Origin: Anaerovoracaceae bacterium
GTDB lineage: Bacteria > Bacillota > Clostridia > Peptostreptococcales > Anaerovoracaceae
Reading direction: 5' to 3'
Length of the DNA: 64,000 nucleotides
Assembly (NCBI GenBank): GCA_040308005.1
Contig: JAWRIG010000024.1
Coordinates: 1,429 to 65,428, forward strand
Made by a program: the position numbers and the translations under genes. Under the pieces are notes generated by a model. That model did not search any database, was not told the DNA's origin, and was given only the letters and a program-made list of their open reading frames with translations. This document shows positions 22,913 to 45,129 of this stretch, in pieces. How positions within the stretch are numbered: the stretch's first letter is position 1; each line of letters starts with the position of its first letter.

Positions 22913-23311
22913 ATGAAACTGAATTTCGGTAAGAAAAATGATGTAGAAACAGCTGCTCAGGCAGGCCTCGAAGGTGCACATGCAGCTTCAGAAAATGCAG
23001 CAGAATTTGCGGCTGAAGTAAAGGGCGCTGCAGCAGCTAATAAGGAAGAAGAACTTGATCTGACCAAGCTCAAGAAGAAAGACCTTCTTGAGATCATGCT
23101 GAGGCAGGGTGAAGAGATCGATGCTCTGAGAGCTCAGGTTGAAGACCTTCAGGCCAGACTCGACAATAAAGAATTCGAACTCAGCAAGGTAGGCTCTATA
23201 GCTGAGGCATCGCTCGCAGTCACAGAGATATTCAAGGAAGCCGACAAGGCCGCCATGATATACCTTACCAACCTTAAGCGTATGGCTGAGGAGGGCATGA
23301 AGAATGAGTGA
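22913..23311 (+). CDS. Small coiled-coil protein of unknown function (132 aa, no signal peptide)
   Basis: ORF with heptad-like charged helices (LDLTKLKKKDLLEIMLRQGEEIDALRAQVEDLQARLDNKEFEL). It overlaps the following signal peptidase gene by 8 nt, which suggests translational coupling. I recognise no family. Confidence 0.5.
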   Translation: MKLNFGKKNDVETAAQAGLEGAHAASENAAEFAAEVKGAAAANKEEELDLTKLKKKDLLEIMLRQGEEIDALRAQVEDLQARLDNKEFELSKVGSIAEASLAVTEIFKEADKAAMIYLTNLKRMAEEGMKNE

Positions 23312-23930
23312 GCAGGATCTTCAGATGACTCCTGACATCATCGAGGCTCCGGAAGTCCCGGCGGTGCCGCTGCCGGACACCGAGACCATCAGGGCAGCAT
23401 ATGAGAAAGTCTCGTATGCCGACAAGCTCAGGAAGTCCATCATCAGCACGACCAACATCCTTATAGTAGTAGCTGCCGTAGCGATACTCGTGGCTATGCT
23501 CTTCCTGCCTGTACTCAGGATATACGGCAACTCGATGAACTCGACCCTCAACTCAGGCGAGCTCGTGGTATCCGTCAAGGGATCAAGCTTCAGGACAGGC
23601 GACATCATCGCTTTCTACTATAACAACAACATCCTGGTAAAGCGTGTAATGGCTAATCCTGGCGACTGGGTGGACATGGACCTCGACGGCAACGTCTACG
23701 TCAACCAGCAGCTGGTCGAAGAGCCTTACCTGACGGAGAAGGCCTTCGGCGAGCCGGACATCGACTTCCCGTACCAGGTGCCGGATGACAGAGTGTTCGT
23801 CCTCGGTGACAACAGAGATGTCTCGATAGACTCGAGATACAAGTCGGTAGGATGCGTTTCATCAGAACAGATAGTTGGCAAAATAGTCTTCCGCGTCTGG
23901 CCGCTCAATCGCATCGGACCGATACATTAA
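23304..23930 (+). CDS. Signal peptidase I (S26 family, bacterial P-type Ser/Lys dyad)
   Basis: N-terminal TM segment. Box B YGNSMNSTL (Ser nucleophile), box D ILVKRVMANPGD (Lys), box E VLGDNRDVSIDSRY. Confidence 0.9.
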   Translation: MSEQDLQMTPDIIEAPEVPAVPLPDTETIRAAYEKVSYADKLRKSIISTTNILIVVAAVAILVAMLFLPVLRIYGNSMNSTLNSGELVVSVKGSSFRTGDIIAFYYNNNILVKRVMANPGDWVDMDLDGNVYVNQQLVEEPYLTEKAFGEPDIDFPYQVPDDRVFVLGDNRDVSIDSRYKSVGCVSSEQIVGKIVFRVWPLNRIGPIH

Positions 23931-23985
23931 CTACATTATGATTATTGCTTTGCAGACTCCGAGGGGAGGTTAGCAAAGTTGTAAT

Positions 23986-24071: not shown

Positions 24072-24134
24072 GAATAAAGTGGACCGAGGGGTCATAGTAA
24101 AATATGCCTAAGAGGGCAAGAAAGGAAGGTAAAA

Positions 24135-25826
24135 ATGAAGAAAACAAAACGTATTTTTGCGATCTTCATGACATTGACACTCGCAATGTCAATGCTGATC
24201 GCAAGCAGCGCAGTGTCATTCGCAGCTGAAGGTGATGGCTATACTGTTACTATTACTGGGAATCCTCAGGATAAAGGAACACATAGCTACGAAGCTTACC
24301 AGATATTCAAAGGCAATCTAAATGAAACTACTGGTGCTTTAGGCAATTTACAGTGGGGCTCTGGTATATCTGAAGCAGGCAAAACGGCTCTTGGTGATGC
24401 AAAAACATACGCAGAGTCTATGACAGAAGAAAATGCTGCAGAAAAAGCTGCTGAGCTCGCACAGTATCTTACTTCTCCTGAAAAGACCGGTACAACTTCA
24501 ATCACAGGCCTTGAGGGGGGATATTATCTGATTCAGGATGCAACTTCTTCACCAACTGGTGATAGTGCTGCCAAGACAAAGTTCATCCTCAAGGTAATAA
24601 AAGATGAAACTGTAAATGTAAAATCATCAGTTCCGACTGTTGAAAAGAAAGTACAGGATATTAATGATTCGGATACAACTCCGACTCTTTCATCTTTACA
24701 GGATTCTGCAGACTATGATATTGGAGATAAGATTCCTTATACTGTAACAGCAACTATAGGAACCGGTATTGATTATTTCGAATCCTACAGCATGCAGTTT
24801 GCAGATAAAATGAGCAAGGGACTTTCTTTAATAGAGGACACCACCGGCGCTGATGCATGGTCAATTAAACTGATCAGAACTACCACGTCCGGAGAAGGGG
24901 ATGAAGCTACCACTACTGACACTGAAGTTGCAGATTTAACCTCTCTCTTCACAATAACATCAGCTGCTTCAACCTCTGATAAAACATGGACCTGGACAGC
25001 TACTAATATCATGAAGAATGGTGATACAGCTATCGATGTTCAGGCTGGTGATAAAGTAGTACTTACCTATAAGTGCATTTTAAATAAAGATGCTGTTATA
25101 GGTTCGGCAGGAAACCCGAATGAAGTTCAACTTAAGTTCGACAATAATCCGAATAAATCGGGCGAAGGTAAACCTGCTGGTACTACTCCATGGGATAAAA
25201 ACATAGTGTTTACTTACAAAACTGTGTTTAACAAAGTTGAGAATGTAGAAGAAACACTTACAGCTGAGCAGTATGCGGCTCTATCTGAGGCTGAGAAGGC
25301 AAAATGTACTGAAGTAACTGCTGACGACGGTACTAAAACTTATAAGAGAATGGTTGAACAGCCACTTGTAGGTGCTGACTTTAAACTTGAAAAGAAAGTG
25401 AATGGTGAATGGACCGATGTAACTACTTTAGGATCGGGTCAGAATAAGCCTTCGAAGACAGGCGATGCTTCTGGTTCAACTTTCGAGTTTAAAGGACTCG
25501 ATGATGGTGACTATAGACTTACAGAGACAACGACTCCTCCTGGATATAATACTATTGATCCTATCGTATTCACAATAACTGCAACTCATGATATCGAAAG
25601 TGCTAATCCTGCGCTTACAGCTTTATCAGGAACAGATGGCAAAGAATTTGTTATGACTTCTAATCTGCAGGCTGGATCACTTACAGCTGCTATTGTGAAC
25701 GAAGAAGGCGCTGTTCTTCCGGCTACCGGTGGTATCGGTACTATCATCTTCTACGTACTCGGTACTCTGCTCGTAGTTGGATGCGGCGTTGTTCTGATCT
25801 CGAAGAAGAGAATGGAGAACAAGTAG
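24135..25826 (+). CDS. LPxTG-type (LPATGG) sortase-dependent pilin / isopeptide-domain fimbrial subunit
   Basis: Signal peptide (AVSFAAEG). The SpaA-type N-terminal motif YEAYQIFKG. The E-box-like motif YRLTETTTPPGYN. C-terminal LPATGGIGTIIFYVLGTLLVVGCGVVLISKKRMENK (sorting motif, TM segment, basic tail). A class C sortase gene follows. Confidence 0.85.
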   Translation: MKKTKRIFAIFMTLTLAMSMLIASSAVSFAAEGDGYTVTITGNPQDKGTHSYEAYQIFKGNLNETTGALGNLQWGSGISEAGKTALGDAKTYAESMTEENAAEKAAELAQYLTSPEKTGTTSITGLEGGYYLIQDATSSPTGDSAAKTKFILKVIKDETVNVKSSVPTVEKKVQDINDSDTTPTLSSLQDSADYDIGDKIPYTVTATIGTGIDYFESYSMQFADKMSKGLSLIEDTTGADAWSIKLIRTTTSGEGDEATTTDTEVADLTSLFTITSAASTSDKTWTWTATNIMKNGDTAIDVQAGDKVVLTYKCILNKDAVIGSAGNPNEVQLKFDNNPNKSGEGKPAGTTPWDKNIVFTYKTVFNKVENVEETLTAEQYAALSEAEKAKCTEVTADDGTKTYKRMVEQPLVGADFKLEKKVNGEWTDVTTLGSGQNKPSKTGDASGSTFEFKGLDDGDYRLTETTTPPGYNTIDPIVFTITATHDIESANPALTALSGTDGKEFVMTSNLQAGSLTAAIVNEEGAVLPATGGIGTIIFYVLGTLLVVGCGVVLISKKRMENK

Positions 25827-25870
25827 CCAGTTTACTGACTCACACACAATGTATTGAGACTATATTTAAC

Positions 25871-25908
25871 CGGCGCGGGGTCTTACCCGTTAAGGCCCCG
25901 CTAGCCGG
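25871..25908 (+). other. GC-rich hairpin between the pilin and sortase genes (no U-tract)
   Basis: CCGGCGCGGGG...CCCCGC(TA)GCCGG forms an 11-bp stem with a 2-nt bulge in a 253-nt intergenic spacer. Confidence 0.4.
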
Positions 25909-26079
25909 ACAACGTGCACCAGGCTGATGCACGCAGCAAGGGATTATCCCCTCACAATACTTTATCCCTTGACAGGAATCTGCCCAGCAGGTGTTACGGG
26001 CCTGCGGCAACGGATCATGTTGCAAGCGATATGATCTGCTTCCGGAAGCCCGTAGCGGATAGGTACAGGTGATTAATAA

Positions 26080-26961
26080 ATGAAGGATTGGATAAAACGG
26101 AATCTGCTGACAGTGATAATGGCGGTCGGAATGTTCGTCGGGGTCGTACTTCTCCTGTATCCATCGGTGTCTAACTACTGGAACTCATTTCACCAGACAA
26201 GGGCTATCGCGGGATACACAGAAGCTGTAAGCAAAATGAGTAAAGAAGACTACTCAGCTATACTCGATTCTGCCCATGAGTACAATGAGCGTCTTGCCGA
26301 GACAGGGATGCGGTGGCACATGGACGATGTGCAAAGGGAGGAGTATAATAAGCAGCTTAGTATTAGCGACTCCCAGATAATGGCTTACGTGAGCATGCCG
26401 AAGTTCCACATCAAGTGCCCTATATACCATGGCACCGATGAAGCCATTCTGCAGGTAGCGGTCGGACATCTCGAAGCATCATCGCTTCCGGTCGGAGGAG
26501 AGAGCACACATACACTCATCTCCGGACACCGCGGACTTCCGTCAGCAAGGCTGTTCACAGATATAGCCAAAATGAAAGAGGGCGACACGTGGACGATCAC
26601 GGTGCTTAACGAGACTTTGACATATGAATGCGATCAGATAAGAGTAGTCCTGCCTGACGACCTGTCGGATTTGCAGATAGAAGAAGGCAAAGACCTCTGT
26701 ACACTGATCACATGTACACCATACGGTATCAACACACACAGGCTGCTGGTAAGAGGACACAGGATACCTAATGTAGACGGTATCGCAGACCTCACGGCAG
26801 ACGGCATCCAGATAGAGCCGGTGTTCATAGCACCGTTCCTGGCAGTGCCGATACTGATACTGTTGATCATAATGATGCTGATCACCTCCAGACGTGTAAA
26901 ACGGATGGGGTCAGAAGAATATAAATCTATATACCTCGAGAAGAAGGGGCTGAAGAAATGA
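26080..26961 (+). CDS. srtC: Class C (pilin-polymerising) sortase
   Basis: N-terminal TM segment. LISGHRGLPSARLF (catalytic His), TLITCTPYGINTHRLLVRG (TLxTC Cys and conserved Arg), and a C-terminal TM segment with a basic tail, typical of class C enzymes. Confidence 0.9.
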   Translation: MKDWIKRNLLTVIMAVGMFVGVVLLLYPSVSNYWNSFHQTRAIAGYTEAVSKMSKEDYSAILDSAHEYNERLAETGMRWHMDDVQREEYNKQLSISDSQIMAYVSMPKFHIKCPIYHGTDEAILQVAVGHLEASSLPVGGESTHTLISGHRGLPSARLFTDIAKMKEGDTWTITVLNETLTYECDQIRVVLPDDLSDLQIEEGKDLCTLITCTPYGINTHRLLVRGHRIPNVDGIADLTADGIQIEPVFIAPFLAVPILILLIIMMLITSRRVKRMGSEEYKSIYLEKKGLKK

Positions 26962-28502
26962 AGACTAAGAGACTAACAAAAGGCAAAGCAATACTCGCAT
27001 TCGTGCTGATGCTTATTCTTGCTTCCGGTTTTTACTTGCTGGGAGAGAAAGCATACGCTGATGAAGGCGGAACTGTAACAGTCAAAGTTGGTAATGTGGT
27101 TGGCGACAATGTTGGCTCTTTACCAGCAGGCACTACTTTTACATATAAAGTGTACAAAGTAGGTGATTATGACCGAAGCACAGACGGTACAGTTGTATAT
27201 AAACTGGATCCTGATCTTGGTGAAGCTTCGGGTGTAGCTCAGTTTGTGTCCCAGCCGTCAAGCTTTGATCCAGAGCAGGATGATTGGGCAAAGACATGGG
27301 TTGCACAAGCGAATACATTAGCTACATATATCAATTCTCTTGATGACAAGCCAGACGTTGTAGGTAATCCATACACAGTCACTCTTACTAAGGAAGGAAC
27401 TGAAGAAGGTGCTGCAAGTTTTGATGTAAATCTTCCAACTAACGGCCTTTATCTTCTCTTTGGTGAACCTGTTCAGGTGGGAGATTATCTGTGGACGCCG
27501 CAGCCTGTATTTCTCAGCGCTCTGAATGGGTCTGAAAGGAATTTCGACTACAGCAATTCAGTTGCCAAGAAGATGATATCAAGAAAAGTTGTATTTAATC
27601 ACAACGTCGCAAAGAACTGGATTGGAGATGAAGATATCTCTGACTATGTTCGTCCGAGTAAAATCGCTGTCAAAATCATGTACGGAACAACCTTGGTAGA
27701 TACTGTGATTCTTGAGCGCGACAAGGGATATACATTCTCATGGAAGCATAAAAAACTTGAGGAACATGCGACACAGATTACATACTATCCTGAAGGAGAT
27801 ACTACGGGAAGAGTAATACCTGTTAAATCTACTGACGCAGGATGGTCCGTAGTTGAACTTAGAGAAGCAGATGCTGCAGGTACTGAAGCAGAAGCTGAAG
27901 CCCCACTTCTTCGTTACTATACAACTGAATATGAGCCACTTTCTGTAGACGATGCTACAGAATCCTTAACAATTAAGAACACTTTCACATGTAAGTATCT
28001 GAAGTTACGGAAATCCATTGATGGGTTCGACGGTAACGGTCAGAACATGACATTCTCCTTCAAGGTTGAAGGCCTGAATTCTTCCGGAACTGTCATATAT
28101 ACCAATCACGTAGGTGTCTCCTTCACACAGGAGGATGGTTTGACCAAAGAGGTTGTCCTGAACTACATACCGGGAGCTGTAGAGTCGATAAGAGTCTCAG
28201 AGGAATATTCAGGTAATTATAATCCTGTAGGTGATATCGAGATCTCAGAACTGTATGAAGAAAAAGATTCACCTAAAGCCGCAGACAATGCTGATGCTGC
28301 AGGAACTGATGATGAAACAGCGACAGCAGAAACTACTGAGAAGAAGGTCGTAGGCTGGGAAGCTGAAGCAAACAACGAACATGGCAATCACGGCCCTAAG
28401 GGTGGAATCGTCAACAGATATAACCACGGAGAGGACCCTGTAAAGGATCCTGGCAGTGACCCGGATGCACCGGCTCCTGTAGTACCAGACTCGCCTAGAT
28501 AA
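26958..28502 (+). CDS. Secreted Cna-B-type surface protein without a sorting signal (514 aa); first gene of cassette copy A
   Basis: Signal peptide ending AYADE. Cna-B-like segment KNWIGDEDISDYVRPSKIAVKIMYG. The C-terminal module LKLRKSIDGF...EEYSGNYNP is shared with the 1847-aa protein. The protein ends in a Pro/Asp-rich tail with no LPxTG. Its ATG overlaps the sortase stop (ATGA). Confidence 0.7.
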   Translation: MKTKRLTKGKAILAFVLMLILASGFYLLGEKAYADEGGTVTVKVGNVVGDNVGSLPAGTTFTYKVYKVGDYDRSTDGTVVYKLDPDLGEASGVAQFVSQPSSFDPEQDDWAKTWVAQANTLATYINSLDDKPDVVGNPYTVTLTKEGTEEGAASFDVNLPTNGLYLLFGEPVQVGDYLWTPQPVFLSALNGSERNFDYSNSVAKKMISRKVVFNHNVAKNWIGDEDISDYVRPSKIAVKIMYGTTLVDTVILERDKGYTFSWKHKKLEEHATQITYYPEGDTTGRVIPVKSTDAGWSVVELREADAAGTEAEAEAPLLRYYTTEYEPLSVDDATESLTIKNTFTCKYLKLRKSIDGFDGNGQNMTFSFKVEGLNSSGTVIYTNHVGVSFTQEDGLTKEVVLNYIPGAVESIRVSEEYSGNYNPVGDIEISELYEEKDSPKAADNADAAGTDDETATAETTEKKVVGWEAEANNEHGNHGPKGGIVNRYNHGEDPVKDPGSDPDAPAPVVPDSPR

Positions 28503-28522
28503 GAAAAGGAGGATGATGCGAT

Positions 28523-29035
28523 ATGAAAAAGAATAAGTTACTGATCATGGCGCTCAGCCTCACACTGTGTCTGACAGTGAGCATCGGACTTGCCGTAGCT
28601 TACTTCACAGACTACGAAGATGCTAAGGGCGGAGCGGTCCTTCACCTCTCGGGAAGAACCGAGATTGAGGAAGATTTCGCTGGCAACGATAAGCTTGTCA
28701 CGATAAAAAATGTCAGCGAGGATGATGTTGACATGGTAGTCAGGGTGCTCGCATATGGAGAGAATCTCCAGTACAGCACAAAGACAGAAGGCGACTGGAT
28801 CAAAGATTCTAAAGAGGACAACATCTGGTACTTCCATAAGGTACTTAAGAAGGGTGATTCCACCAGTGTACTGAGAGTTCATGTTGAAGGCCGTGTAGAT
28901 CCTGAAGACCCAATCGACTTCGAGGTCACTGTTGTACATGAGTCTGAGAGAGTCACATATACTCAGGACTCAGCAGGCAACAATATAGTAAAGATTCCTG
29001 ATGGATGGAATGTATCCTCCATCAGTGCAGAGTAG
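28523..29035 (+). CDS. Small TasA/camelysin-like protein with a SipW-cognate-type signal peptide (170 aa)
   Basis: N-terminus MKKNKLLIMALSLTLCLTVSIGLAVAYFTDYEDAKGG matches the TasA-class signal and cleavage region (xAxF[TSN]D). The C-terminal beta-strand FEVTVVHESERV resembles the TasA FSFEATQ strand. Strong RBS AAAGGAGG. Confidence 0.7.
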   Translation: MKKNKLLIMALSLTLCLTVSIGLAVAYFTDYEDAKGGAVLHLSGRTEIEEDFAGNDKLVTIKNVSEDDVDMVVRVLAYGENLQYSTKTEGDWIKDSKEDNIWYFHKVLKKGDSTSVLRVHVEGRVDPEDPIDFEVTVVHESERVTYTQDSAGNNIVKIPDGWNVSSISAE

Positions 29036-29046: not shown

Positions 29047-29889
29047 ATGAAAAAGACTAAACTTTCAAAACGCACTATGGCTCTGCTGGTCGCAGCAGGA
29101 CTCCTGTTCACAGGCGGCGCAGTCACCGGCACAAGAGCAGCTCTGAACATCCAGAGTGAATACTACCGCGCACACTTCTATCTGAATCACCTGCAGGTGC
29201 ACCTGATCGAGAATGGCGAGGATGTCTGCGACAGAGCAGGCCATGCCAATGACCTGAACGGCGACGCCAAGACAACAGGTGAGCTCGCAACCGATCTCAA
29301 GTATGAGCACAAGGTAGATGGCGATGAAGTCCTCGGATCAGTCGAGCCGGGCAAAACATACAGAGAAGAGATCGCAGCACAGAACGGCAGCGACATCGAC
29401 GAGTTCGTAAGACTCACCGTACGCAAGTACTGGATGGAGCCTGCTGAAGACGGCAGCATGGTCAAGTCATCAACACTCAGCCCTGACCGAATCCAGCTGA
29501 TGTACGGCGGCAAGGTCGGATGCAACACTGGAGCATGGGCAGAGAACTCAGCTGAAAAGACCGCAGAGAGCAGCACTTATTACTATAAGTCAGACCTCAG
29601 CAGCGGAGAGACATCAGCATTGCTCTTCGACAAGATCAAGATCGACGCAGACCTTGCAGACCTCGGACAGATGACAACTACCGAGACGCAGGAAGGAAAC
29701 AAGAAGGTCTACACATACACATACCAGTATGACGGAGCTACCTTCTACATCGAGGCTGACGTACAGGCTATCCAGACCCACAATGTCAATGAGGCCATCA
29801 AGAGCCAGTGGGGCGTCAGCAACGTAACAGCTAATTACAGTGATCCACAGAACAACGGACAGGGCAGCGGAACGCTGTCAGTCAACTAG
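29047..29889 (+). CDS. TasA/camelysin-like secreted protein (280 aa)
   Basis: Signal LLVAAGLLFTGGAVTGTRAALN. The paralogue in copy B reads GTRAALTYFSEDY. The C-terminal FYIEADVQAIQTHNV resembles the terminal TasA strand (F.F.A.Q). RBS AGGAGG before the ATG at 29047. Confidence 0.65.
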   Translation: MKKTKLSKRTMALLVAAGLLFTGGAVTGTRAALNIQSEYYRAHFYLNHLQVHLIENGEDVCDRAGHANDLNGDAKTTGELATDLKYEHKVDGDEVLGSVEPGKTYREEIAAQNGSDIDEFVRLTVRKYWMEPAEDGSMVKSSTLSPDRIQLMYGGKVGCNTGAWAENSAEKTAESSTYYYKSDLSSGETSALLFDKIKIDADLADLGQMTTTETQEGNKKVYTYTYQYDGATFYIEADVQAIQTHNVNEAIKSQWGVSNVTANYSDPQNNGQGSGTLSVN

Positions 29890-29900: not shown

Positions 29901-30686
29901 ATGATCAAGAGAATGATTAAGATCCTGCCGGTCCTCGCACTGGCACTGATGATGGTCATGAGCATGTCCTCAGCGGTACTCGCTGAGAGCACAAGCTATG
30001 ACGGCATATGCACATTCACAGGCAGCAAGATGGTATCGAGTTTCGACTCAGCCCAGCTTGCAAGCGCAGTCTCAGGACTGCAGCCTGGTGATGATGTCAC
30101 ATTCACAGTAGAGTACAAGAACAGATACGACGGCGCTACAGACTGGTACATGGAGAACAGCATCGTACAGACGCTGGAGAAAGCCAACGCCAAGAAGAGA
30201 GTAAGCGGCACCGGCCAGGCAGAGAACGGCGGTTACACATACGAGCTGACACTTCACAAGTCTGACGGTACGACAAGCGTGCTCTTCAGCAATGCCACAG
30301 TCGGCGGCGAAGCTGTAGTAAATAACAGAGAAGGTCTCGAGCCTGCAACCAACGCACTCGAAGACTGGTTCTACATTGACACACTGAAGAAGAACGGAGA
30401 CTCCGGCACAGTAGTACTTCACGTAGCATTCGACGGAGAGACCGAAGTAAACGACTACATGGATACAGACGGTGAACTTAACGTAAGGTTCGCTGTAGAG
30501 CTGCCGCCGGAAGGAACCCCGCCTGAAGAGACCGAGGTAATCAAGAAGGTAGTCAAAACAGGAGACCAGAGCAGACTCCTCATGTGGGCGTCGATCGGCC
30601 TCGTAGCAGGCCTCCTGATGTTCGTGCTCGCATTCCTCAGCAGGAAGAAAGATGAGAAAGCAGACGGCAAAGGAGGTAGAGCGTGA
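29901..30686 (+). CDS. TasA-like beta-sandwich protein with a C-terminal VKTGD sorting-signal-like anchor (261 aa)
   Basis: Signal peptide ending VLAES. GETEVNDYMDTDGELNVRFAVE resembles the TasA NKYQG...F.F.A.Q region. The C-terminus is KKVVKTGDQSRLLMWASIGLVAGLLMFVLAFLSRKKDEK (motif, TM segment, basic tail). Confidence 0.65.
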   Translation: MIKRMIKILPVLALALMMVMSMSSAVLAESTSYDGICTFTGSKMVSSFDSAQLASAVSGLQPGDDVTFTVEYKNRYDGATDWYMENSIVQTLEKANAKKRVSGTGQAENGGYTYELTLHKSDGTTSVLFSNATVGGEAVVNNREGLEPATNALEDWFYIDTLKKNGDSGTVVLHVAFDGETEVNDYMDTDGELNVRFAVELPPEGTPPEETEVIKKVVKTGDQSRLLMWASIGLVAGLLMFVLAFLSRKKDEKADGKGGRA

Positions 30687-31708
30687 TGAAGACTTACAGA
30701 AGAATTCTTACGATCGTCCTCAGCCTGATGCTGACACTGAGCCTCAGCGGCATAGCAGCATTCGCAGCTGAGGGAGACAACCTGGACAACGCCGGCCTGA
30801 CATACACAGTCACCATCTACTCAGGTGACTCGGGCACATTCAAGGACGGAAGCACAGTAAAGAAGATCACCGGCCTTTCATACGGAGATACAGTCAAGCT
30901 GAGCATCAACTCAGAGGACTATGCTCCGGTACTGAACAAAGACGCCGAGAAGTACTATGCACGCGGCTTCAAGATCGCAGGACACGATAACGACGAGATC
31001 AGCCGTCTGCAACTGGTTGACTACAACTACCAGGTAACAGGCGATGAGTCCTTCACAGTCGCATACGGCATGAAGGGCGGCATGGTCAAGTACACAGTCA
31101 ACTATGTTGACGAGAACGGCAACACACTCCATCCGTCAGCAGAATACTACGGAATGGCAGGAGACTATCCGGTAGTTTCGTACCAGTATGTCGAGGGATT
31201 CGCACCTAATGCGTATAACCTCGGTAAGACACTTACAGCCAACGAGGCAGACAACGTATTCACCTTCACATATGCTCCGAGTACTCTGACTGCTGAAGAG
31301 CAGGCAGCAGCCGCAACACAGGTAGTTACAGTCGTAGCTGCCGGCGGTAACGCAGGAGCTGGTGCCGGAGCAGGAGCTGGTGCGGGTGCAGGCGGCGCCG
31401 GAGCTGCAGGAGCAGGCGGAGTCAACATTGGAGACAATGCTACACCGGCAGCAGGAGCACCTAACGTAGTCGACCTCGACAACGGAGATGTACCGCAGGC
31501 AGAACCTGATACCGACGAGAAGGAAGGCGAGCTTGCAGGACAGAAGACAAGAGGCATCATCATCGCAGGAGCATGCGCAGTGCTGCTCGCAGCAATAGCT
31601 GCTTTCGCACTCGCAAAGCGCAAGAGCGAAGAAGATGAAGACGAAGAAGACGAGGATGAAGACGAGGTCGAGAACAAGACCGAGACCGAGTCTGAACCAA
31701 AACACTAA
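30686..31708 (+). CDS. Type I membrane protein with a MucBP-like ectodomain, a Gly/Ala-rich linker and a poly-acidic cytoplasmic tail (340 aa)
   Basis: Signal peptide (AAFAAEG). The MucBP-like segment is VKYTVNYVDENGNTLHPSAEYYGMAGDYPVVSYQYVEGFAPNAYNL...NVFTFTY. The linker is GAGAGAGAGAGAGGAGAAGAGG. TM segment IIIAGACAVLLAAIAAFALA, then EEDEDEEDEDEDE. RBS AAAGGAGG lies 8 nt upstream of the ATG at 30686. Confidence 0.65.
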   Translation: MKTYRRILTIVLSLMLTLSLSGIAAFAAEGDNLDNAGLTYTVTIYSGDSGTFKDGSTVKKITGLSYGDTVKLSINSEDYAPVLNKDAEKYYARGFKIAGHDNDEISRLQLVDYNYQVTGDESFTVAYGMKGGMVKYTVNYVDENGNTLHPSAEYYGMAGDYPVVSYQYVEGFAPNAYNLGKTLTANEADNVFTFTYAPSTLTAEEQAAAATQVVTVVAAGGNAGAGAGAGAGAGAGGAGAAGAGGVNIGDNATPAAGAPNVVDLDNGDVPQAEPDTDEKEGELAGQKTRGIIIAGACAVLLAAIAAFALAKRKSEEDEDEEDEDEDEVENKTETESEPKH

Positions 31709-37131: not shown

Positions 37132-40100
37132 ATGAAGTTATTAGAGAGACTGGACAACTTGATCAAACTTCTCGCCGAACACATCCACAACAGGAAACGT
37201 GCAGTGCTAGCGCTCGCGTGCCTGGTAGTGTTCGTAACGACCTACACCCTGATTTTGCCGGCCTTCACACTCGGGAAGACCACAGCGGCACAGCAGGGCG
37301 GCATTGACGTGCCGGGAGTCACCGAGACCACTACGGAAGTGACAGAGGAGACCACTGAAGAGGCCACAGAAGAGGTGCCTGCAGAAGAGACCACAGAGGA
37401 AACTGCAGAAGCTGCCGAGACTGAGGTCACAGAAGAGGCACAGGCTGAGGAGCAGCCGCAGGAAGCAGCAGAGGAAGGCAAAACCGAAGAGCCTGCATCC
37501 GAGGCGGTCACTGAGGAGAAGAACACCGAGAAAGCAGAAGAGCCGGCCACAGACGAGACCGATCCTCTTAAGTTCGAAGGTGAGAAATACACTATCGCGG
37601 TAGTCGATAATGATTCCGTGCTGCCTGAGAATACCAGCATCAAGGTAAAGGAAATCGACAAAAGCGACAATGCCGATGCATACGAGCAGCACTTCAACGA
37701 CGCGCTCGAAGCAGTCCAGAAAGAGAAAGACGGCGAGAACGTCTCAGACTTTGAATTTGCCAGATTCTATGACATTTCTCTCGTGTCAGACGGCAATGAA
37801 GTAAGTCTCTCAGACGGTGACAAAGTCAGCGTCAACATCGAATACGACAAAGAACTCAGAAAAGCCCTGGGTGTCGAAGACAAGAACAACATCAGAATCA
37901 TCCACTTTGCAGAGAACAAGAGCACAGGCGAGGTAACAGCCGAAGTACTTGACAATAAAGATGCAAAGGTAGAGGTGAATACTGACAGCAAAGATCAGCT
38001 CAAAGAAGCGTCATTTGAGGCAGAATCATTCTCTGTATATGCAGTTGTGTATACAGTTGACTTTGAGTATGAAGACGAGGCAACACATGAAGTCTTCACT
38101 TACAGTATGGAAGGTGGCAGCAGCATTACTCTCAAGAAGCTCGCTGTAATCCTCGGAATCACAACAAAAGCAGAAGCAGATGAATTCATCGCAAACGTAG
38201 AAGATGTTAAGTTCAGCGATGAGAAGCTTGTCAAAGTAGAGAAGACTGATGACGGCTGGACACTCAACTCACTCAAGGCATTTGACACAACAGAGACACT
38301 GACCATCACCATGAAGGATGGAAGTGAATATGATGTCAAAGTTACAGACGCTACCGCAGTGCCTGAAACAAATGTTAATATTGCTCCATTTATAACTGAT
38401 GCTACTCTTGATATTGATGGCAAAACATATGGTGCGGGAGAAACCTGGAAAGTTAGGCCAGATGTAGATTACAAACTTACTCTTACATTTACTGAGAAGG
38501 GATCAAGACAGTTGCCTCCTGGAGGTAGCACATTAGTAATGGACCTTCCTGCCGGACTCACATTGGAACCAGGTGCCAGCGGTACTTTTGATATTCCATG
38601 CGGCTTAGCTGGAACAGTAACAGGTAATACTTGGACAGTTGGTTCAGACAATAAACTACATATTCAGCTTGGCGATGATCCTGAAGATCTGATTACCAGA
38701 TCTTCGAACGTTCATATCAATCTTGAGTTAGATGCTAAATTTGATGGAACTCATACGGAATTTGAGTTTAATGATAAAGTAAAAAGAGAAGTAGAGTACG
38801 ATAATTCAGCAAGTGCATCTATCACTAAGAGTGGGCATTATAATGCTTCCACTAATAAGATGGAGTACACATTATCAGTTAAGTCAACAGGAAAGACTGA
38901 GAATGTTAAGATTACTGATGCTATTTCAGGAGATATGTTATCACTGGATGAGAACTCGATAGTAATTGTTCCGGCCAACAAAACTGTAACAAATAAAAGC
39001 ACAAATGCTAAAGGTTTCGAACTTACTATATCTGAGATGTCTCACAATGAAACAGTTACGATAAACTACACAGCCTCTGTCGACCTTTCAAAGGTAGGTC
39101 CAGGAGGAACAGTAACAGCTCAAGATGGCACAAATACGGTAACAGTTAAACCAGGTAATGGCGATGGTGATAACGATACCAATATAGTTAATACTATTAA
39201 GTACTCCAGCATTTCTAAAAGCAGTACTGGACAGTCAGAGGTAGAGGGACAAAAGAAAGTAAAACTTGATTGGACCATAGTTGCTAATAAGGGAAGCCGC
39301 GGATCTCTTGCTGGAAGTAGCATAACAGATAAGATTGATTATAACAGTAAGGATGTTATGAAATATGAGAGTAATCCTCTCAGCCTCGAAATCAAAGTAT
39401 ATGATCAGAATGGTACTTTCATAGAAACACGTACTGCCTCTGTTGATGTGAGTGATAATCAAGGACAAGAATCATGGAAATACGTTATTCCTGAAACTGA
39501 TAAATCTCATAATTACTACTATGAAATCAGTTATAGTACTATAGCTGATCAGCAAAAGGAAAACACAAGTGTTAAGAACAATGCTGAAAATGAGAGTGAT
39601 GGCACTTCTTCGGGTTCAGGAATTGTTCCGGGAACAAATCCTGGAGGCGGTGGAGATGATCCGGTACCAAGTATAGTTACTGAAAAAACTGCGAAAAAAG
39701 TTACAACTGACTATATAGATTGGGATATTGTTATTAATGTACCGGCGGAAGGTTTTCCGGATGGACTCACAGTCGTTGATGATGTCCCTCATTCCGGGAA
39801 ATATGCAGATAGCTTTGACAGTATCCTTAGTGTTACAGGTCTAGTCAATAATGAAACCTATTCTTTCAATCCTGTGTCAACCGATTTAGATGAAAATGGT
39901 AACGTGGATTGGGATCTGAGACATGCTGGGAAAACCAGAGACGTTGTTACTATAGATTTTTTCCAGAATCAGGCAAAGACAGATAAAGGGCTTGATGCAC
40001 AAGCAAGGACCATTACTATTACTATACGTACTTTGAATGATAAAGACTGGATGGCATATGCGGAAAAAAGAGGCGGTGGCGACCCTGCATATTATCATTG

Positions 40101-43100
40101 GAATAATGCAAAGGTCAATGACACCAAAATTAAGAATTACGGCATTCCGCTTAACAGCAGTATAGAAAAGACAAGTGATAATAAGAATTCCGCAACAACA
40201 ATAGAAAAGGATGGTGTTCAGGTACCAGTATATGAATACTCTCTAACTCTAACTAATGTAACAGACCTTCCATTAGTTATTAACGACACCTTTGATACAG
40301 AATTAATGGAGTATTATGGCCCTGGAGATCCTTCGAGTGGACATAACACTATTGCTGCTGCCGAGCAGAAACACGAACTCAACGGTGGTGTTGATGGTTA
40401 TTCCGCTACATTTGAGCAGACAGATAATGGCCTTGTTATTACTGCGAATGATTTACCTAAGAAGCAGGATGGCTCATTCTACGAGTATTACAGACTATAC
40501 TACAAACTTAATGTAAGACCGGATAAGCTTGCTGATCTTAAGAGACTAGCGTATAACAATGGAGGTGTATATAAATTAAGTAATGATGTTATGTGGGATA
40601 CTATCCCAGGACATTACGATATAGAGTATAAGGTACCTGGCTTGACTAAAGAGGGATACTTTAGTAAGGCTGCACCAGATAGGATGTATACCTTCCTTAT
40701 TGATGTGAATCCTGAGAAGTTCGAAATGAATGGCGGTCAACCGATGGAACTGTCCGATTCTCATACAGATAATTTATCAGTAGATTATACTTCAATTAAG
40801 GTCTATAAAATTACAGATGGTAAAATAGAAACAAATCCTAGAAATTATAATCTAAATGATTATGAAGCTGTCACAGGTGAAGTAACTTGGGATTTCAGCG
40901 GAAATACAGGAACCTTTACAGTTCCTGACAATACACACTATCTTATAGTATACAATGCCCTTGTTATAGGAAGTGACAAACAAGATATTTCAAATGTTGC
41001 TGAAATGAAAGGATTCAGCAGTACAAAAACTGACAGCAGAGATTTTGGCAGTGACTCTGGAGCCGGCGGTGATGTAATGCAGGTTAAACTGCTCAAGCAT
41101 ATGGAAGGGCAGACAAGTGAAGGCCTAGAAGGCACTACGTTCCAGCTGTTCAGAGGAACTGGCGAGTATACAAGGAATGAAGATGGTTCTTATAAAGACG
41201 AAATAAAAGAACCGATGAAGTATGGTGACACAAAATATACTCGTGGTGAAGAAGCATATGATAATAGAGAATATAGCTTTGACACTCATGGAGCGAATGT
41301 TGTTGGTCATAACATAACATTTACAACTAATTCAGAAGGCTGGGTTACAATAGCTCTCAACCAGAGTGTACACGGTGAGATGCTCGAGGAAGGAGTTCAT
41401 TACTATCTGAAAGAAATCGACTCCCCGCCAGGATATCAGATTGACAGCTCCGTAGAGTATTGGGAATTTACATTAACTAAAGACCCTGATGGCGTTAGCT
41501 ATGGTACAACCAGAGACCCTGTAACTGGATGGAGACAGTGGATTTATTTCTACTATAACGATATTCTGAAAATGTCAAACACGCCAACTACAAACCCGCT
41601 GGATGTTAATGTTGATAAACAGTGGTTTGATGAGAATGGCGTAGAGATTACAGATGATAGACTCAATGATCTTGAAGCTACCATTCAGTTGATGCGCAAG
41701 AAAAATGACGAGGAGTATAAGAAAGTAAAAGTCACATATGGTGCTGATGGGACACCTGTAATTGAAGAAGTTTCCGATGAAAGCGGTGTAGTTACACTTG
41801 ATAACAGTAATAATTGGGAATATTCGTGGAACGACCTGCCTCGCGTTGACGGAAATGATAAATATGCATACAAAATTGAAGAGGTAAATGTCAGCGGATA
41901 TGTTGTTGATATGACTGAAACTGAGGATGAAACTTCCAAGACATACTCCCTTAAAAACTACAAAGTACCGGAAGATAGGACAACCGATATTTCTGTAGAG
42001 AAAAAGTGGCAGGATTTTGAGGGCAATGATCTGGAAGGAACAGAAGAAAACATTCCTGAAATGATACATTATTATCTGTATCAGGTAGTCAGTTCTACTC
42101 CATTTACGACAGCACCTAAGACAGGTGGTAGCATATATGTAATACCAAATGATGATAGACTTGTAGACAGAACTGCAACCGATGCAGATGACAATTATGG
42201 TATTTACTATATGACAAAGGGGTCAAGTGAACCATATTGGAGTACTACGTTTGAAAATCTGCCGGAAGTTGTTACTGACAGTAGTGGCAATACTCTTTTC
42301 TATGCTTATTATATTAAGGAAGTAAAGGATAATGTCATTAAAGACTATACGACCACGTATGAGCAAAATGGTACAACACGTACTGTAATTAACCGTGAGC
42401 CAAGACCAGAAGGCAATTACATTGATATAGGGCTAGAGAAAAAATGGACCGATGGCACTAGTACAAATCCGCCTGCAGGTGCAAGCGCCACATTTACAGT
42501 GCATCAGCAGAAAGCAGAAAAAGAAGAAGGACCTTCTGGCGATTACGAAGTTGTATTATATGATGCAGATGAAAAAACTATTTTAAGTCAAACAAGAGCT
42601 AATCTTGGTGATTCGGTTACTTTATCCTGCGTGACTAATAGCGAAGCAAGTACTAATATTGATGTTTATCAATATCGACCTGATTGGGGAGATTGGTATG
42701 GATACACATACAAGGATAATATTGGAGGTGCAGGCGAAATAAGTAAATCGATTTCGATTACACAGAGCGATGTTGTTAATAACAAAGTACAATTAAAGAT
42801 TGAGGATAGTAATTTCTGTAATAAGTGTGAACAGGTGCCAACACTGACGGCAGACTCGACTACACCTTCATATTCTGGATATGAAGATACGTCTTTTAGT
42901 AAACAGATTATGCTGCCAATTAATGGTTCTTGGAGTACAACTATTGATAATCTTGTACAACAGGATGCAGAAGGAAATCTCTATCGCTACTACATTACTG
43001 AGGATTCTTCAACACCTTCATCTTCAAATGTTACATTTGTAGATGAAAATGGGGCTGACATCAAGGATTCTTCTGGCAATAGAACTGTACCGATATCTGA

Positions 43101-45129
43101 CAAAGACAAGACTGTTAAGGTGACAAACACTGTTGCCAGCGGTTCATTAAAGGTTAAAAAGGTTGTCACTCTAAATGATGGACCTAACGGTACCAGCACA
43201 TTAACTGACGGAACATATACTTTCCATATCGCTGCAAGTGGTGCTGAAACTACTCCGCTTCATACTGTAACAATTAAGTATGCAGGTGGAACAGTTACTG
43301 AAGCTAAACTTGATGGAAATGATATTTCTCCAGACGATGCAGGTTACTATGAAGTAAGTGGGCTGGCAGCTGGTGATTATGTAATCTCTGAGGATGCTAC
43401 AACTAATGGCACCATCCTCAAATCAATCGATGGCGGTAAATCCAAAGATGTTAATAATAGAAAAGTAACCGTTACAGTTGAAGAAGGTAAATCAGGATCT
43501 ACTGTAGCAGATACAGGCAAAGCCGTATTTACCAATGATATGGCTACTGTAAAGGCTAAGGTTCTGAAAGTATGGGACGATCATAATAACACGGGAACCC
43601 CTGCTAGCTTAACAGTAACATTATCTAATGGACATACTGAAGTTTTGACTGCTGAAAATAATTGGACAGCAACAGTCGATAATCTGCCTAAATATGCACA
43701 TGATGGTACTGAACTTCAGTATGAGTGGACAGAGGGAACCATTACTGGTTATAAATTGCTTAGCAGCGAAACTGAAGTAATTGAAGAAGACGGCTTTACT
43801 ACTTACTTCACAACCCTGACAAACACTAATGAAGAACATTACAATCCTAAGACGTCATTTAGTGGAACTAAGATCTGGAATGACGATGGAAAAGATCGTC
43901 CAGATTCAATTATCGTAGTATTGTATAAGGGAGAAGGAACAAATAAGACAGAGGTAGCTAGAGAGACCATAAATGCTCCGGAATCAGGAAGCGATTCGTG
44001 GCACTATGAATTTACCAACATTCCGATCTTTGATGAAAATGGTAATGCTATTGTTTACAGTGTAGAAGAGATTCTTCCGGCAGGATATGAGGACAAGTAT
44101 CTCAGTACTGTTGATACTGAAAGTCAGCAGATTCCAAGCTATGTTAGAGATCCTGACAATGATACGATTCATGTAAAAGAGGAATGTAGTGATAAAATCA
44201 TTAACACAGGTGTAAACCTTGGATTCATAGTTGTTAAGCAAGGAAATAGTTTTGTTATCTGGACACCTAGAAAAGCATCTCAAGATGAATTGGATACAAT
44301 TGCAAGTAAGGTTGCTAATCAGCACGGTGAAGTAGGTGATAATGAGTTCAGTCAGATTTTGAAGAAGGGATACAGAAATGCGTGGGGTGTTCCTCCAAGC
44401 GAACCTCTTAGCGTTCACAATAATCCAATATATTTAACAATGGATGGTGACAATGTAATTATTACCCTTACAAATTGGTCACAGCTTGCATGGGGACAAC
44501 TGGCATACAACTATACACCAGGAATAACCAATATCATCAACACGCCAATTAAGACTGATTTTGAGTTCTTCAAGGAATGGAAGGATTCTGCAACTAACAT
44601 TGCATGGCCTAAGAATGGTACAGATAATGTGAATATTGAGGTTGAGATAGGTCGTACATATAAACAAAACGGCCAGGATGTCGATGATTCCACATTCAGT
44701 CTCAAATACACAATTGGCACTAACCTCCCAACAAGTGGTTCTGCATCTATAGAGCCTGATGGAACAGCTTCTACACCACTGCTTATAGCTAATGTAGGAA
44801 CAGAAAATCCACCGACCTATGAGTTCAAAATCGAGAACCTTGATAAAATCAGGCACATAGAAGGACAGGAAGATTTAGAGTACACGTACTATGTGAAAGA
44901 GACAAGTGTTCCTGAACCTTACAAACTGTCAGGTTATAAGAAGGGTGAGATGACGGTTGATCCAACAGGAAGCATTGGTGATGGCGGTACTATAATCAAT
45001 ACATCTGATTCGTCATACGAACTTCCACACACTGGCGGTATCGGTACTACGATATTCTACATCCTCGGTTCGATCCTCGTGATCGGCGGCGGCATCTACT
45101 TCGTATCGCGCAGGCGTGTAATGAGGTAG
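37132..45129 (+). CDS. Giant LPxTG-type (LPHTGG) surface adhesin, 2665 aa, with multiple Cna-B-type repeats
   Basis: The N-terminal leader LACLVVFVTTYTLILPAFTL...QQGGIDVPG is homologous to that of the previous gene. A Glu/Thr/Ala-rich acidic region and the stalk motif FSVYAVVYTVDFEYE follow. There are many Cna-B-like modules (DKQWFDENG, VEKKWQDFEG, LEKKWTDG, VLKVWDDHNN, GTKIWNDDGKDRPDSIIVVLYK...VYSVEE) and SpaA-like GTTFQLFRG...YYLKEIDSPPGYQ. The C-terminus is LPHTGGIGTTIFYILGSILVIGGGIYFVSRRRVMR. Confidence 0.9.
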   Translation: MKLLERLDNLIKLLAEHIHNRKRAVLALACLVVFVTTYTLILPAFTLGKTTAAQQGGIDVPGVTETTTEVTEETTEEATEEVPAEETTEETAEAAETEVTEEAQAEEQPQEAAEEGKTEEPASEAVTEEKNTEKAEEPATDETDPLKFEGEKYTIAVVDNDSVLPENTSIKVKEIDKSDNADAYEQHFNDALEAVQKEKDGENVSDFEFARFYDISLVSDGNEVSLSDGDKVSVNIEYDKELRKALGVEDKNNIRIIHFAENKSTGEVTAEVLDNKDAKVEVNTDSKDQLKEASFEAESFSVYAVVYTVDFEYEDEATHEVFTYSMEGGSSITLKKLAVILGITTKAEADEFIANVEDVKFSDEKLVKVEKTDDGWTLNSLKAFDTTETLTITMKDGSEYDVKVTDATAVPETNVNIAPFITDATLDIDGKTYGAGETWKVRPDVDYKLTLTFTEKGSRQLPPGGSTLVMDLPAGLTLEPGASGTFDIPCGLAGTVTGNTWTVGSDNKLHIQLGDDPEDLITRSSNVHINLELDAKFDGTHTEFEFNDKVKREVEYDNSASASITKSGHYNASTNKMEYTLSVKSTGKTENVKITDAISGDMLSLDENSIVIVPANKTVTNKSTNAKGFELTISEMSHNETVTINYTASVDLSKVGPGGTVTAQDGTNTVTVKPGNGDGDNDTNIVNTIKYSSISKSSTGQSEVEGQKKVKLDWTIVANKGSRGSLAGSSITDKIDYNSKDVMKYESNPLSLEIKVYDQNGTFIETRTASVDVSDNQGQESWKYVIPETDKSHNYYYEISYSTIADQQKENTSVKNNAENESDGTSSGSGIVPGTNPGGGGDDPVPSIVTEKTAKKVTTDYIDWDIVINVPAEGFPDGLTVVDDVPHSGKYADSFDSILSVTGLVNNETYSFNPVSTDLDENGNVDWDLRHAGKTRDVVTIDFFQNQAKTDKGLDAQARTITITIRTLNDKDWMAYAEKRGGGDPAYYHWNNAKVNDTKIKNYGIPLNSSIEKTSDNKNSATTIEKDGVQVPVYEYSLTLTNVTDLPLVINDTFDTELMEYYGPGDPSSGHNTIAAAEQKHELNGGVDGYSATFEQTDNGLVITANDLPKKQDGSFYEYYRLYYKLNVRPDKLADLKRLAYNNGGVYKLSNDVMWDTIPGHYDIEYKVPGLTKEGYFSKAAPDRMYTFLIDVNPEKFEMNGGQPMELSDSHTDNLSVDYTSIKVYKITDGKIETNPRNYNLNDYEAVTGEVTWDFSGNTGTFTVPDNTHYLIVYNALVIGSDKQDISNVAEMKGFSSTKTDSRDFGSDSGAGGDVMQVKLLKHMEGQTSEGLEGTTFQLFRGTGEYTRNEDGSYKDEIKEPMKYGDTKYTRGEEAYDNREYSFDTHGANVVGHNITFTTNSEGWVTIALNQSVHGEMLEEGVHYYLKEIDSPPGYQIDSSVEYWEFTLTKDPDGVSYGTTRDPVTGWRQWIYFYYNDILKMSNTPTTNPLDVNVDKQWFDENGVEITDDRLNDLEATIQLMRKKNDEEYKKVKVTYGADGTPVIEEVSDESGVVTLDNSNNWEYSWNDLPRVDGNDKYAYKIEEVNVSGYVVDMTETEDETSKTYSLKNYKVPEDRTTDISVEKKWQDFEGNDLEGTEENIPEMIHYYLYQVVSSTPFTTAPKTGGSIYVIPNDDRLVDRTATDADDNYGIYYMTKGSSEPYWSTTFENLPEVVTDSSGNTLFYAYYIKEVKDNVIKDYTTTYEQNGTTRTVINREPRPEGNYIDIGLEKKWTDGTSTNPPAGASATFTVHQQKAEKEEGPSGDYEVVLYDADEKTILSQTRANLGDSVTLSCVTNSEASTNIDVYQYRPDWGDWYGYTYKDNIGGAGEISKSISITQSDVVNNKVQLKIEDSNFCNKCEQVPTLTADSTTPSYSGYEDTSFSKQIMLPINGSWSTTIDNLVQQDAEGNLYRYYITEDSSTPSSSNVTFVDENGADIKDSSGNRTVPISDKDKTVKVTNTVASGSLKVKKVVTLNDGPNGTSTLTDGTYTFHIAASGAETTPLHTVTIKYAGGTVTEAKLDGNDISPDDAGYYEVSGLAAGDYVISEDATTNGTILKSIDGGKSKDVNNRKVTVTVEEGKSGSTVADTGKAVFTNDMATVKAKVLKVWDDHNNTGTPASLTVTLSNGHTEVLTAENNWTATVDNLPKYAHDGTELQYEWTEGTITGYKLLSSETEVIEEDGFTTYFTTLTNTNEEHYNPKTSFSGTKIWNDDGKDRPDSIIVVLYKGEGTNKTEVARETINAPESGSDSWHYEFTNIPIFDENGNAIVYSVEEILPAGYEDKYLSTVDTESQQIPSYVRDPDNDTIHVKEECSDKIINTGVNLGFIVVKQGNSFVIWTPRKASQDELDTIASKVANQHGEVGDNEFSQILKKGYRNAWGVPPSEPLSVHNNPIYLTMDGDNVIITLTNWSQLAWGQLAYNYTPGITNIINTPIKTDFEFFKEWKDSATNIAWPKNGTDNVNIEVEIGRTYKQNGQDVDDSTFSLKYTIGTNLPTSGSASIEPDGTASTPLLIANVGTENPPTYEFKIENLDKIRHIEGQEDLEYTYYVKETSVPEPYKLSGYKKGEMTVDPTGSIGDGGTIINTSDSSYELPHTGGIGTTIFYILGSILVIGGGIYFVSRRRVMR

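Follow-up and report, generated by a model that had tools for sequence, protein, structure and literature searches.

Sortase-assembled pili and fibres of the TasA type are taught as separate Gram-positive solutions. TasA of Bacillus subtilis is a donor-strand-exchange fibre; the SipA/LepA proteins lack the catalytic serine and lysine; and the SrtB substrates of Clostridioides difficile carry (S/P)PxTG signals. Here we analyse a 64,000-nucleotide stretch of contig JAWRIG010000024.1 from an Anaerovoracaceae bacterium (hereafter the window), in which a cluster of genes at positions 22913-45129, designated Locus A, brings together a sortase pilus module and a cassette of five genes, p5-p9, with remote kinship to the TasA/BsaA family. 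On balance, and with some reserve, we believe that Locus A is one conserved surface-organelle cluster in which these two modules cooperate.

Clostridium perfringens offers a described point of reference: in most strains one BsaB paralogue with an LPXTG motif adjoins a sortase gene and is the proposed anchor of the BsaA fibre, and genes of the BsaA/TasA family often share a putative operon with genes for LPxTG and SpaA proteins, signal peptidases and sortases (Kivimaki et al., bioRxiv 10.1101/2024.11.04.621531, a 2025 preprint). The first-pass annotation of the window, made from the sequence alone, was not aware of a described system that encodes both kinds of fibre as one unit along with adhesins of several thousand residues. 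This stands insofar as no example has been characterised, and our literature search for pilus clusters with sortase and SipW genes found no experimental study of such a cluster, but neighbourhoods of this type are mentioned in the same preprint. Locus A is an uncharacterised arrangement of known kinds of parts. Its interest lies in its wide distribution among important gut anaerobes and in the testable question that it poses, namely how Gram-positive adhesins are anchored.

Gene content of Locus A

Calling of open reading frames (ORFs) places twelve consecutive genes, p1 to p12, on the plus strand between two intrinsic terminators. The first-pass annotation had counted thirteen, and our search for a credible thirteenth gene within 22913-45129 found none. 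Three pairs of genes overlap, p1/p2 by 8 nucleotides (nt) and p4/p5 and p8/p9 by 4 nt each. The intergenic gaps from p5 to p11 measure 11-37 nt, with p7 starting at 29047 and p11 at 32329, both starts having been chosen for the best ribosome-binding site and for support from orthologues. Wider gaps occur only at p2-p3 (204 nt), p3-p4 (253 nt) and p11-p12 (120 nt).

Profile matches identify the pilus module as a standard SpaA-type sortase set. The backbone pilin p3 (24135-25826) bears an LPATGG sorting signal, matches Gram_pos_anchor and scores above the cut-offs of GramPos_pilinBB, SpaA, TIGR04226 and TIGR01167, its pilin domains being of the SpaH/EbpB type. The protein diverges fast, with 27-36% identity among orthologues. 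Its translation contains YEAYQIFKG, the E-box YRLTETTTPPGY and LPATGGIGTIIFYVLG; no YPKN-type pilin motif was seen in it by eye, and the functional pilin lysine may be supplied by YEAYQIFKG. The class C sortase p4 (26080-26961; NF033745, 272 bits against a cut-off of 160) keeps the motifs GHRG, TLITC and VRGHR, which the alignment assigns to the catalytic His, Cys and Arg, and a local scan with hidden Markov models found no other catalytic sortase in the 64-kb window.

The two remaining members of the module are adhesins of giant size. The first, p11 (32329-37011; about 1560 residues), is encoded by an ORF that opens at 32242 with a likely start at 32329; it matches SpaA, the fibro-slime domain and the LPXTG anchor, carries LPITGGIGTTIFYVLG and ends in LPITGG. 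The second, p12 (37132-45129; 2665 residues), has Cna_B repeats, carries LPHTGGIGTTIFYILG and ends in LPHTGG. The sorting tails of p3, p11 and p12 are almost identical, and the N-terminus of p11 parallels that of p12. LPXTG signals in Locus A are limited to these three proteins; no canonical small LPXTG basal pilin was found in the locus, where p8 ends in xxTGD and p5 is devoid of a sorting signal. Both giants also begin (at 32329-32520 and 37132-37320) with an unusual long leader common to the two: some 25 residues that form a charged helix, then a hydrophobic span ending LI(F/L)PA(R/F)TL, then QGGIDVP. In contrast, p3, p5, p8 and p9 have ordinary signal peptides; the leader could explain a dedicated peptidase.

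The cassette lies between the sortase gene and the pseudo-sortase gene p10. Its first product, p5 (26958-28502), is a secreted pilin-like protein whose start codon overlaps the stop of the sortase gene (ATGA). The C-terminal domain of p5 is CnaB/DUF5979-like: homologues match the Pfam family DUF5979, and the conserved residues K352, E415, N473 and N486 make up the Lys/Glu/Asn set typical of CnaB-type domains. Across 81 loci this domain is present in 80 of the 81 ORFs that end just 5' of a p6 gene. Homologues of p5 from Lachnospiraceae (L022-L100) carry, some 10 residues past DUF5979, a short C-terminal motif of alternating aromatic character (EWSWEQQ, QYQYTEP) that could be a strand-like docking peptide; the window's p5 has no such tail.

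Profile comparisons with hhalign on non-redundant sets show the next three proteins to be paralogues, with probabilities of 96% for p6-p7 and 92.5% for p6-p8; p8-p9 scores 94%. The small secreted beta-sandwich protein p6 (28523-29035) bears a SipW-type signal peptide, AVAYFTDYEDAKGGA, and its AlphaFold 2 (AF2) model has a predicted local distance difference test score (pLDDT) of 84. The BsaA/TasA-like subunit p7 (29047-29889), a candidate for the major fibre protein, is likewise modelled as a beta-sandwich (pLDDT 79) and belongs to a family of 1047 clusters at 50% identity, in which matches to TIGR04090 occur. The paralogous beta-sandwich protein p8 (29901-30686) ends in VVKTGD, a hydrophobic span and RKKDEK. 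The corresponding pattern, x-x-[KRYQNS]-T-G-D followed by a hydrophobic span and a basic tail, recurs in all 73 distinct full-length homologues, with TGD invariant. One homologue (L044, Lachnospiraceae, SPKTGD) passes TIGR01167 with 18.5 bits against 15.9, and that of Dorea longicatena is named a 'sortase B protein-sorting domain-containing protein' by NCBI. We disfavour p8 as a lysine-bearing basal pilin because no lysine of its ectodomain is conserved. The last protein, p9 (30683-31708), is conserved in every cassette; it is secreted, with a C-terminal membrane anchor, an acidic tail and a weak MucBP-like domain (20.6 bits in a homologue, below the cut-off).

The head of the operon is formed by p1 and p2. 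The cytoplasmic coiled-coil protein p1 (22913-23311; 132 residues) matches no family and is not present in the Lachnospiraceae clusters described below; judging from the 8-nt overlap, it is translationally coupled to p2. Its residues 60-130 are 57-72% identical in all loci with the complete gene order of Locus A, and in the same loci p2 is the best conserved protein (76-85% identity). This p2 (23304-23930) is a bacterial P-type signal peptidase I by its match to TIGR02227 (123 bits). Its GNSM serine and VKRV lysine align with the catalytic residues of Staphylococcus aureus SpsB, and from these intact residues p2 is judged to be an active enzyme; because they are intact, we reject the notion that it is an inactive SipA-like chaperone. 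Orthology to SipW is rejected as well, since the archaeal/SipW model gives p2 only 26 bits, below its cut-off.

The pseudo-sortase p10 (31746-32312), a membrane-anchored protein of 188 residues, reaches 24.1 bits with Pfam Sortase against a cut-off of 26.6. Aligned to SrtC, it shows Gly in place of the catalytic His and Leu in place of the Arg, and Ser replaces the Cys in the L016 orthologue. Orthologues of p10 are 58-71% identical despite the lost catalytic residues, and we read the protein as a pseudo-enzyme. Our search of the literature on pseudo-sortases found no characterised example.

The inventory given by the first-pass annotation is largely borne out. The component families are recovered through TIGR02227, NF033745 and the SpaH/EbpB-type pilin domains, all motifs that it named are present in the translations together with the sorting tail shared by p3, p11 and p12, and the call of a pseudo-sortase agrees with a sub-threshold sortase homologue devoid of catalytic His and Arg. 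Its analogy with a signal peptidase linked as in tapA-sipW-tasA fails locally, because p2 is a P-type enzyme and not one of the SipW or endoplasmic-reticulum (ER) type.

Conserved linkage and cassettes outside Locus A

Could the adjacency of the two modules be accidental? A first scan, with one genome per species, yielded eight related loci, all from rumen metagenome-assembled genomes of Anaerovoracaceae. We term Type A the loci with the full order of Locus A and Type B the cassette loci without a nearby sortase. The Type A order (p1, p2, pilin, sortase, p5-p9, p10 and the giant LPXTG genes) is complete in five other Anaerovoracaceae lineages, represented by four of these eight loci (L001, L002, L003 and L008) and by L016/L017, at identities that range from 27% for the pilin to 85% for the peptidase, and the overlap of sortase stop and p5 start is kept in the orthologues. 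The remaining loci of the scan, as well as L009, L013 and L015, hold the cassette only, behind a giant or a short non-LPXTG protein. The Type B adhesins have N-terminal domains in common with the LPXTG giants, but end in a p5-type domain.

A more distant version of the cluster is represented by L018, whose p7 is 32% identical to that of the window and where the order runs: a tip protein with LPETG, a pilin with LPETG, sortase, p5-like protein, p6, p7, p8, p9 and a true SipW-type peptidase. A scan of metagenomes with distant p7 sequences produced more than 572 relatives, from which 80 loci, mostly of the human gut, were kept; a local profile survey finds the L018-like order in all those whose flanking DNA is long enough to show it, and most often the sortases of class C number two. 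This version is present in Lachnospiraceae such as Dorea and Blautia, the members named by source being Dorea longicatena and Blautia stercoris. The protein clusters hold hundreds to thousands of members, and every cassette protein is annotated as hypothetical.

Counts of co-occurrence were drawn over 100 loci. A sortase gene on the same strand lies upstream in 51 of the 58 loci with at least 4 kb of upstream DNA, corresponding to 10 of 14 p7 sequence clusters, and a SipW-type peptidase is found in 40 of the 54 loci with enough downstream DNA (9 of 17 clusters). The SipW-type gene occurs in L018, L013, L015 and L021-L100, and in the relatives it sits 3' of the cassette. The sortase-positive clusters without it are the full-order loci of Anaerovoracaceae, which have p1-p2 at the head and p10 behind p9, in the slot that the SipW-type gene fills elsewhere.

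This conserved synteny leads us to reject chance adjacency, and likewise the modules as independently mobile neighbours. The statement of the first-pass annotation that the pilus and the TasA-like cassette constitute one unit is upheld by the five Anaerovoracaceae lineages and by the variant in Lachnospiraceae, and the survey of sortase and cassette co-occurrence that it had suggested finds them linked in most of the loci with at least 4 kb of upstream DNA.

Three observations on the peptidases and regulators of related loci may be recorded here. In L013 (17953-18453) and L015 (16315-16815) the SipW-type gene is on the minus strand, opposite to the cassette, and unrelated genes fill the roughly 5 kb that separate it from the cassette's downstream end. 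L009, a Mogibacterium-like locus, has directly 3' of the cassette the gene for a P-type peptidase only 34% identical to p2. A SARP-like regulator (Trans_reg_C and BTAD) is encoded beside the SipW-type gene in L044 (12939-13871) and L018 (13409-14653), and has no equivalent in the window's locus.

The window itself holds further cassettes. Locus B (50984-59731, plus strand) is a paralogous five-gene cassette composed of a 1847-residue non-LPXTG adhesin and of copies of p6, p7, p8 and p9 that are 36-49% identical to their counterparts in Locus A. The last domain of the adhesin matches the C-terminal domain of p5, and no sortase, pilin or peptidase gene was found in Locus B. Locus C begins with a third giant gene (60114-64000, plus strand), of the same type as the adhesin gene of Locus B and with a similar N-terminus, whose open frame of 1300 codons runs off the end of the window; a third cassette probably follows it, because the contig, 72 kb in length, has three proteins of the p7 family on record. 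The cassette, claimed earlier as a part of the pilus unit, is indeed linked to the pilus, but it is also autonomous, occurring free of a sortase once more, and probably twice, in the window. Just 5' of Locus B, at 49659-50729, lies a gene for a 356-residue protein with a RelA_SpoT domain (80 bits) and the size of a small alarmone synthetase, which might tie adhesin expression to (p)ppGpp signalling.

Kinship of the cassette and models of assembly

The kinship of the cassette with TasA/BsaA appears real but remote, as its signals are sub-threshold yet consistent. The BsaA model TIGR04090 matches the window's p7 with 13.9 bits (E 0.03) against a cut-off of 60. Across the p7 family, where all matches are sub-threshold, it covers the mature domain from end to end in 18 of the 50 close members and in 31 of the 43 diverse ones, with a best E of 7e-10. 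In the p6 family the SipW-type signal model TIGR04088 is matched by 44 of 50 members, several of them at or above the 19-bit cut-off, and TIGR04090 by 48 of 50. The window's own p6 has the AYFTD motif, yet gives no match to TIGR04088, and the p7 N-terminus (GTRAAL) goes undetected by the same model. In the AF2 model of p7, residues 23-46, which connect the signal helix with the fold, are of low confidence; the donor strand of BsaA has been described as likewise of low confidence in monomer models.

How might the two modules act together? On the reading that we favour, p4 would polymerise the LPATGG backbone pilin p3, and p11 and p12, having the same sorting tail, would be joined to it as pilus tips. 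The cassette proteins p6 and p7 would be exported with SipW-type signal peptides and could build a short stalk through donor-strand exchange, with p8 as its sortase-processed base fixed to the wall and p9 as a membrane-anchored assembly partner. The cargo of this stalk would be the protein encoded just upstream of p6, docked by its C-terminal CnaB/DUF5979 domain: the short p5 in Locus A and the giant adhesins in Loci B and C. The ancestral layout would be one in which a SipW-type peptidase closes the cassette. In the present lineage, its slot would have come to be occupied by the dead sortase p10, probably a substrate-binding helper, with the active p2 and p1 heading the operon; p2 and p10 would then be lineage-specific helpers replacing SipW. 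Two circumstances would hold the modules together: the cassette would depend on a sortase to process p8, and p5, which has a pilin fold but no sorting signal, is encoded by a gene fused to that of the sortase.

Several observations weigh against this reading. The window's p8 scores 11.1 bits with TIGR01167, short of the cut-off of 15.9, and its motif has no Leu-Pro of LPXTG. No gene for a SipW-type peptidase was found in the 64-kb window. The Type B loci have the cassette without a nearby sortase, from which it follows that the cassette needs none in cis. None of the window's cassette proteins reaches the threshold of a curated family or matches any Pfam entry, Peptidase_M73 included. Sequence and profile searches of the PDB with p6, p7, p8 and a diverse p7 alignment found no TasA, and Foldseek searches with the AF2 models of p6 and p7 return cohesins and generic Ig folds first, TasA (8aur) appearing at rank 39 with an E of 0.06 and a template modelling (TM) score of about 0.2. 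Of the 'TasA-like' gene set of the first-pass annotation, remote kinship survives, with no curated match and no singling out of TasA by Foldseek; the genes are present, as part of a fixed five-gene cassette in which p8 has a sorting-like tail of its own.

A single hybrid organelle is an alternative that deserves consideration, although we think it unlikely. The covalent shaft of p11/p12 and p3 would in that case end on a lysine of p5 as the basal pilin, and p5 would be held by a non-covalent or isopeptide-locked TasA-like base of p6, p7, p8 and p9 instead of by LPXTG anchoring. The adhesins of Loci B and C, fused directly to the p5 docking domain, would therefore need no sortase. Such an architecture is suggested by the position of p5, which always follows a sortase gene and often overlaps it, by the presence of only two LPXTG proteins and p8 per cluster with no canonical third basal pilin, and by the Type B adhesins, whose N-terminal domains are those of the LPXTG giants and whose last domain is that of p5. 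The best matches of the p5 profile in the PDB, moreover, are all pilins, and the match to SpaA (3hr6, E 0.05) covers, in our reading of the alignment, the SpaA region with the pilin-motif lysine. These matches are weak, however, with E values of 0.05-0.09 only; BLASTP of p5 against p3 finds nothing, the lysine of 'YKV' in the N-domain of p5 is not invariant, and the aromatic tail of the Lachnospiraceae homologues is missing from p5 of the window.

Quite doubtful, in our estimation, is the existence of two independent, co-regulated fibres, a sortase pilus and a TasA/BsaA-like matrix fibre, that are adjacent as an adhesion island and share no assembly step. The autonomy of the cassette in Type B loci, including one and probably two more copies in the window, speaks for such independence, and the longer spacers and the hairpins near the pilin gene would permit separate transcript dosage; yet the gene order is fixed across families at about 32-35% p7 identity, complete with the start-stop overlap of sortase and p5 genes. 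Likewise, the finding that a sortase mutant of C. perfringens still made BsaA oligomers (Kivimaki et al., bioRxiv 10.1101/2024.11.04.621531) has to be set against the sorting-signal-like TGD tail that p8 invariantly retains, the pilin-like fold signal in p5 and the pseudo-sortase embedded directly 3' of the cassette. It is highly improbable that p6-p9 are accessory export, chaperone or anchoring factors in the biogenesis of the pilus and giant adhesins, comparable in role to SipA/LepA: two of the four are membrane-tethered, the locus also encodes p2 and the inactive p10, which are likely helpers too, and every cassette stands directly behind the gene for a large secreted protein, but the BsaA fibre-subunit model aligns with all of the mature domain of p7, p6 bears a signal of the SipW type, as secreted fibre subunits typically do, and four paralogous beta-sandwich proteins suit a heteropolymer better than a set of chaperones.

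The gene order that locks both fibre types together spans the rumen Anaerovoracaceae and the abundant Lachnospiraceae of the human gut. If the modules cooperate, as we favour, major gut commensals would possess an adhesion organelle that has so far escaped study, with a possible sortase-independent display of multi-thousand-residue adhesins, a natural pseudo-sortase whose role is testable and a case in which the part of SipW may have passed to a P-type peptidase. A hybrid organelle, its pilus or giant adhesin mounted by the p5 domain on a donor-strand base of p6 and p7 that p8 and p9 fix to the envelope, would mean that Gram-positive pili and adhesins can be anchored in a new way, with no need for LPXTG attachment of the cargo, and that this way is widespread in rumen and human-gut Clostridia. 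Even if the fibres are independent, the five-gene cassette provides a well-defined target for work on biofilms and host attachment of anaerobes.

Setting of the locus and comparison with known systems

The 5' boundary of the Locus A unit is an intrinsic terminator at 22496-22525 (plus strand; 9-bp GC-rich stem with a U-run, folding z-score -3.7), which closes the upstream genes for SH3-domain proteins. A promoter-like site, TTGACC-17-TAAAAT, lies 5' of p1 at 22738-22766 (plus strand; 10 of 12 matches in a consensus scan); it is a pattern match only, and the regional count of such sites is not above the expectation from shuffled sequence. A strong stem-loop without a U-tract (25870-25908, plus strand; folding z-score -4.2) follows the pilin gene and is a possible attenuator or stabiliser of the mRNA. 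The unit is closed by a second intrinsic terminator at about 45297-45340 (plus strand), with a 12-bp stem followed by UUUUCGUUU and a folding z-score of -4.5.

We place Locus A on the chromosome because comM, dprA, topA, hslVU and two genes for SH3-domain proteins lie upstream of it. A plasmid, phage or conjugative element as its origin is unlikely in view of the comM, dprA, topA and hslVU genes, with insertion-sequence genes occurring only between Loci A and B. The two SH3_3-domain proteins (434 and 520 residues; 19577-22448) are encoded directly 5' of the operon; their genes are preceded by one for a helix-turn-helix regulator on the sister contig L012 and are not kept beside the orthologous loci. 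The interval between Loci A and B (45339-49467) holds transposase-like ORFs: fragments at 45339-45880, an ORF pair at 45882-48210 that we take, from its translations, to be IS21-like istA/istB, and a minus-strand ORF at 48358-49467 that, also from its translation, presumably belongs to ISL3. The G+C content of the giant adhesin genes (38001-44000, 52001-54000 and 62001-64000) is 0.38-0.40, compared with 0.47-0.53 in the rest of the window, and the GC skew is positive over the entire window.

The pilus module resembles the SpaA-type pili of Corynebacterium diphtheriae (SpaABC), Enterococcus faecalis (Ebp) and Streptococcus pneumoniae (RrgABC) in its class C sortase, its backbone pilin with E-box and LPXTG signal, and its large LPXTG tips. 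It differs from them in having neither a canonical small LPXTG basal pilin nor a visible YPKN in p3, in the five non-pilus genes placed between the sortase and the tip-adhesin genes, and in its two tip-like giants of 1560 and 2665 residues. The signal peptidase at the head of the locus recalls SipA/LepA, signal-peptidase-I homologues at the head of pilus islands in Streptococcus pyogenes (FCT) and S. pneumoniae (PI-2). Solved SipA/LepA chains (4n31) are matched by p2 at an E of 2e-12, the active SpsB being matched slightly better. In contrast to SipA/LepA, p2 keeps both Ser and Lys, and the inactive enzyme homologue of Locus A is the sortase-like p10. The SPKTGD ends of the Lachnospiraceae p8 homologues are reminiscent of C. 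difficile SrtB substrates, whereas the window's p8 has VVKTGD with no Pro, and the nearby sortases are of class C only.

With tapA-sipW-tasA of B. subtilis the locus has in common a dedicated operon, a signal peptidase and an N-terminal signal motif of the same type; a donor-strand-exchange fibre and an accessory anchoring or initiating subunit would be further shared features. That operon, however, is without sortase, LPXTG proteins or adhesins, and its SipW is of the ER type whereas p2 is of the P type; compared with TasA itself, the cassette shows no match to Peptidase_M73 or, by sequence, to the PDB, and the Foldseek match is weak. The bsa operon of C. perfringens (sipW-bsaA-bsaB-bsaC with srtB) likewise encodes secreted BsaA/TasA-family subunits with SipW-type signals, as paralogues in one operon, and the BsaA model TIGR04090 is the one that the p7 family matches below the curated cut-off. 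Locus A departs from it in having a P-type instead of a SipW peptidase and in being without the vWA protein BsaC and without a link to type IV pili. Its cassette is a fixed set of five genes, headed by one for a pilin-like protein or a giant adhesin and including one for a membrane-anchored fourth paralogue, and the operon that surrounds it is that of a complete class C sortase pilus, with a pseudo-sortase gene besides.

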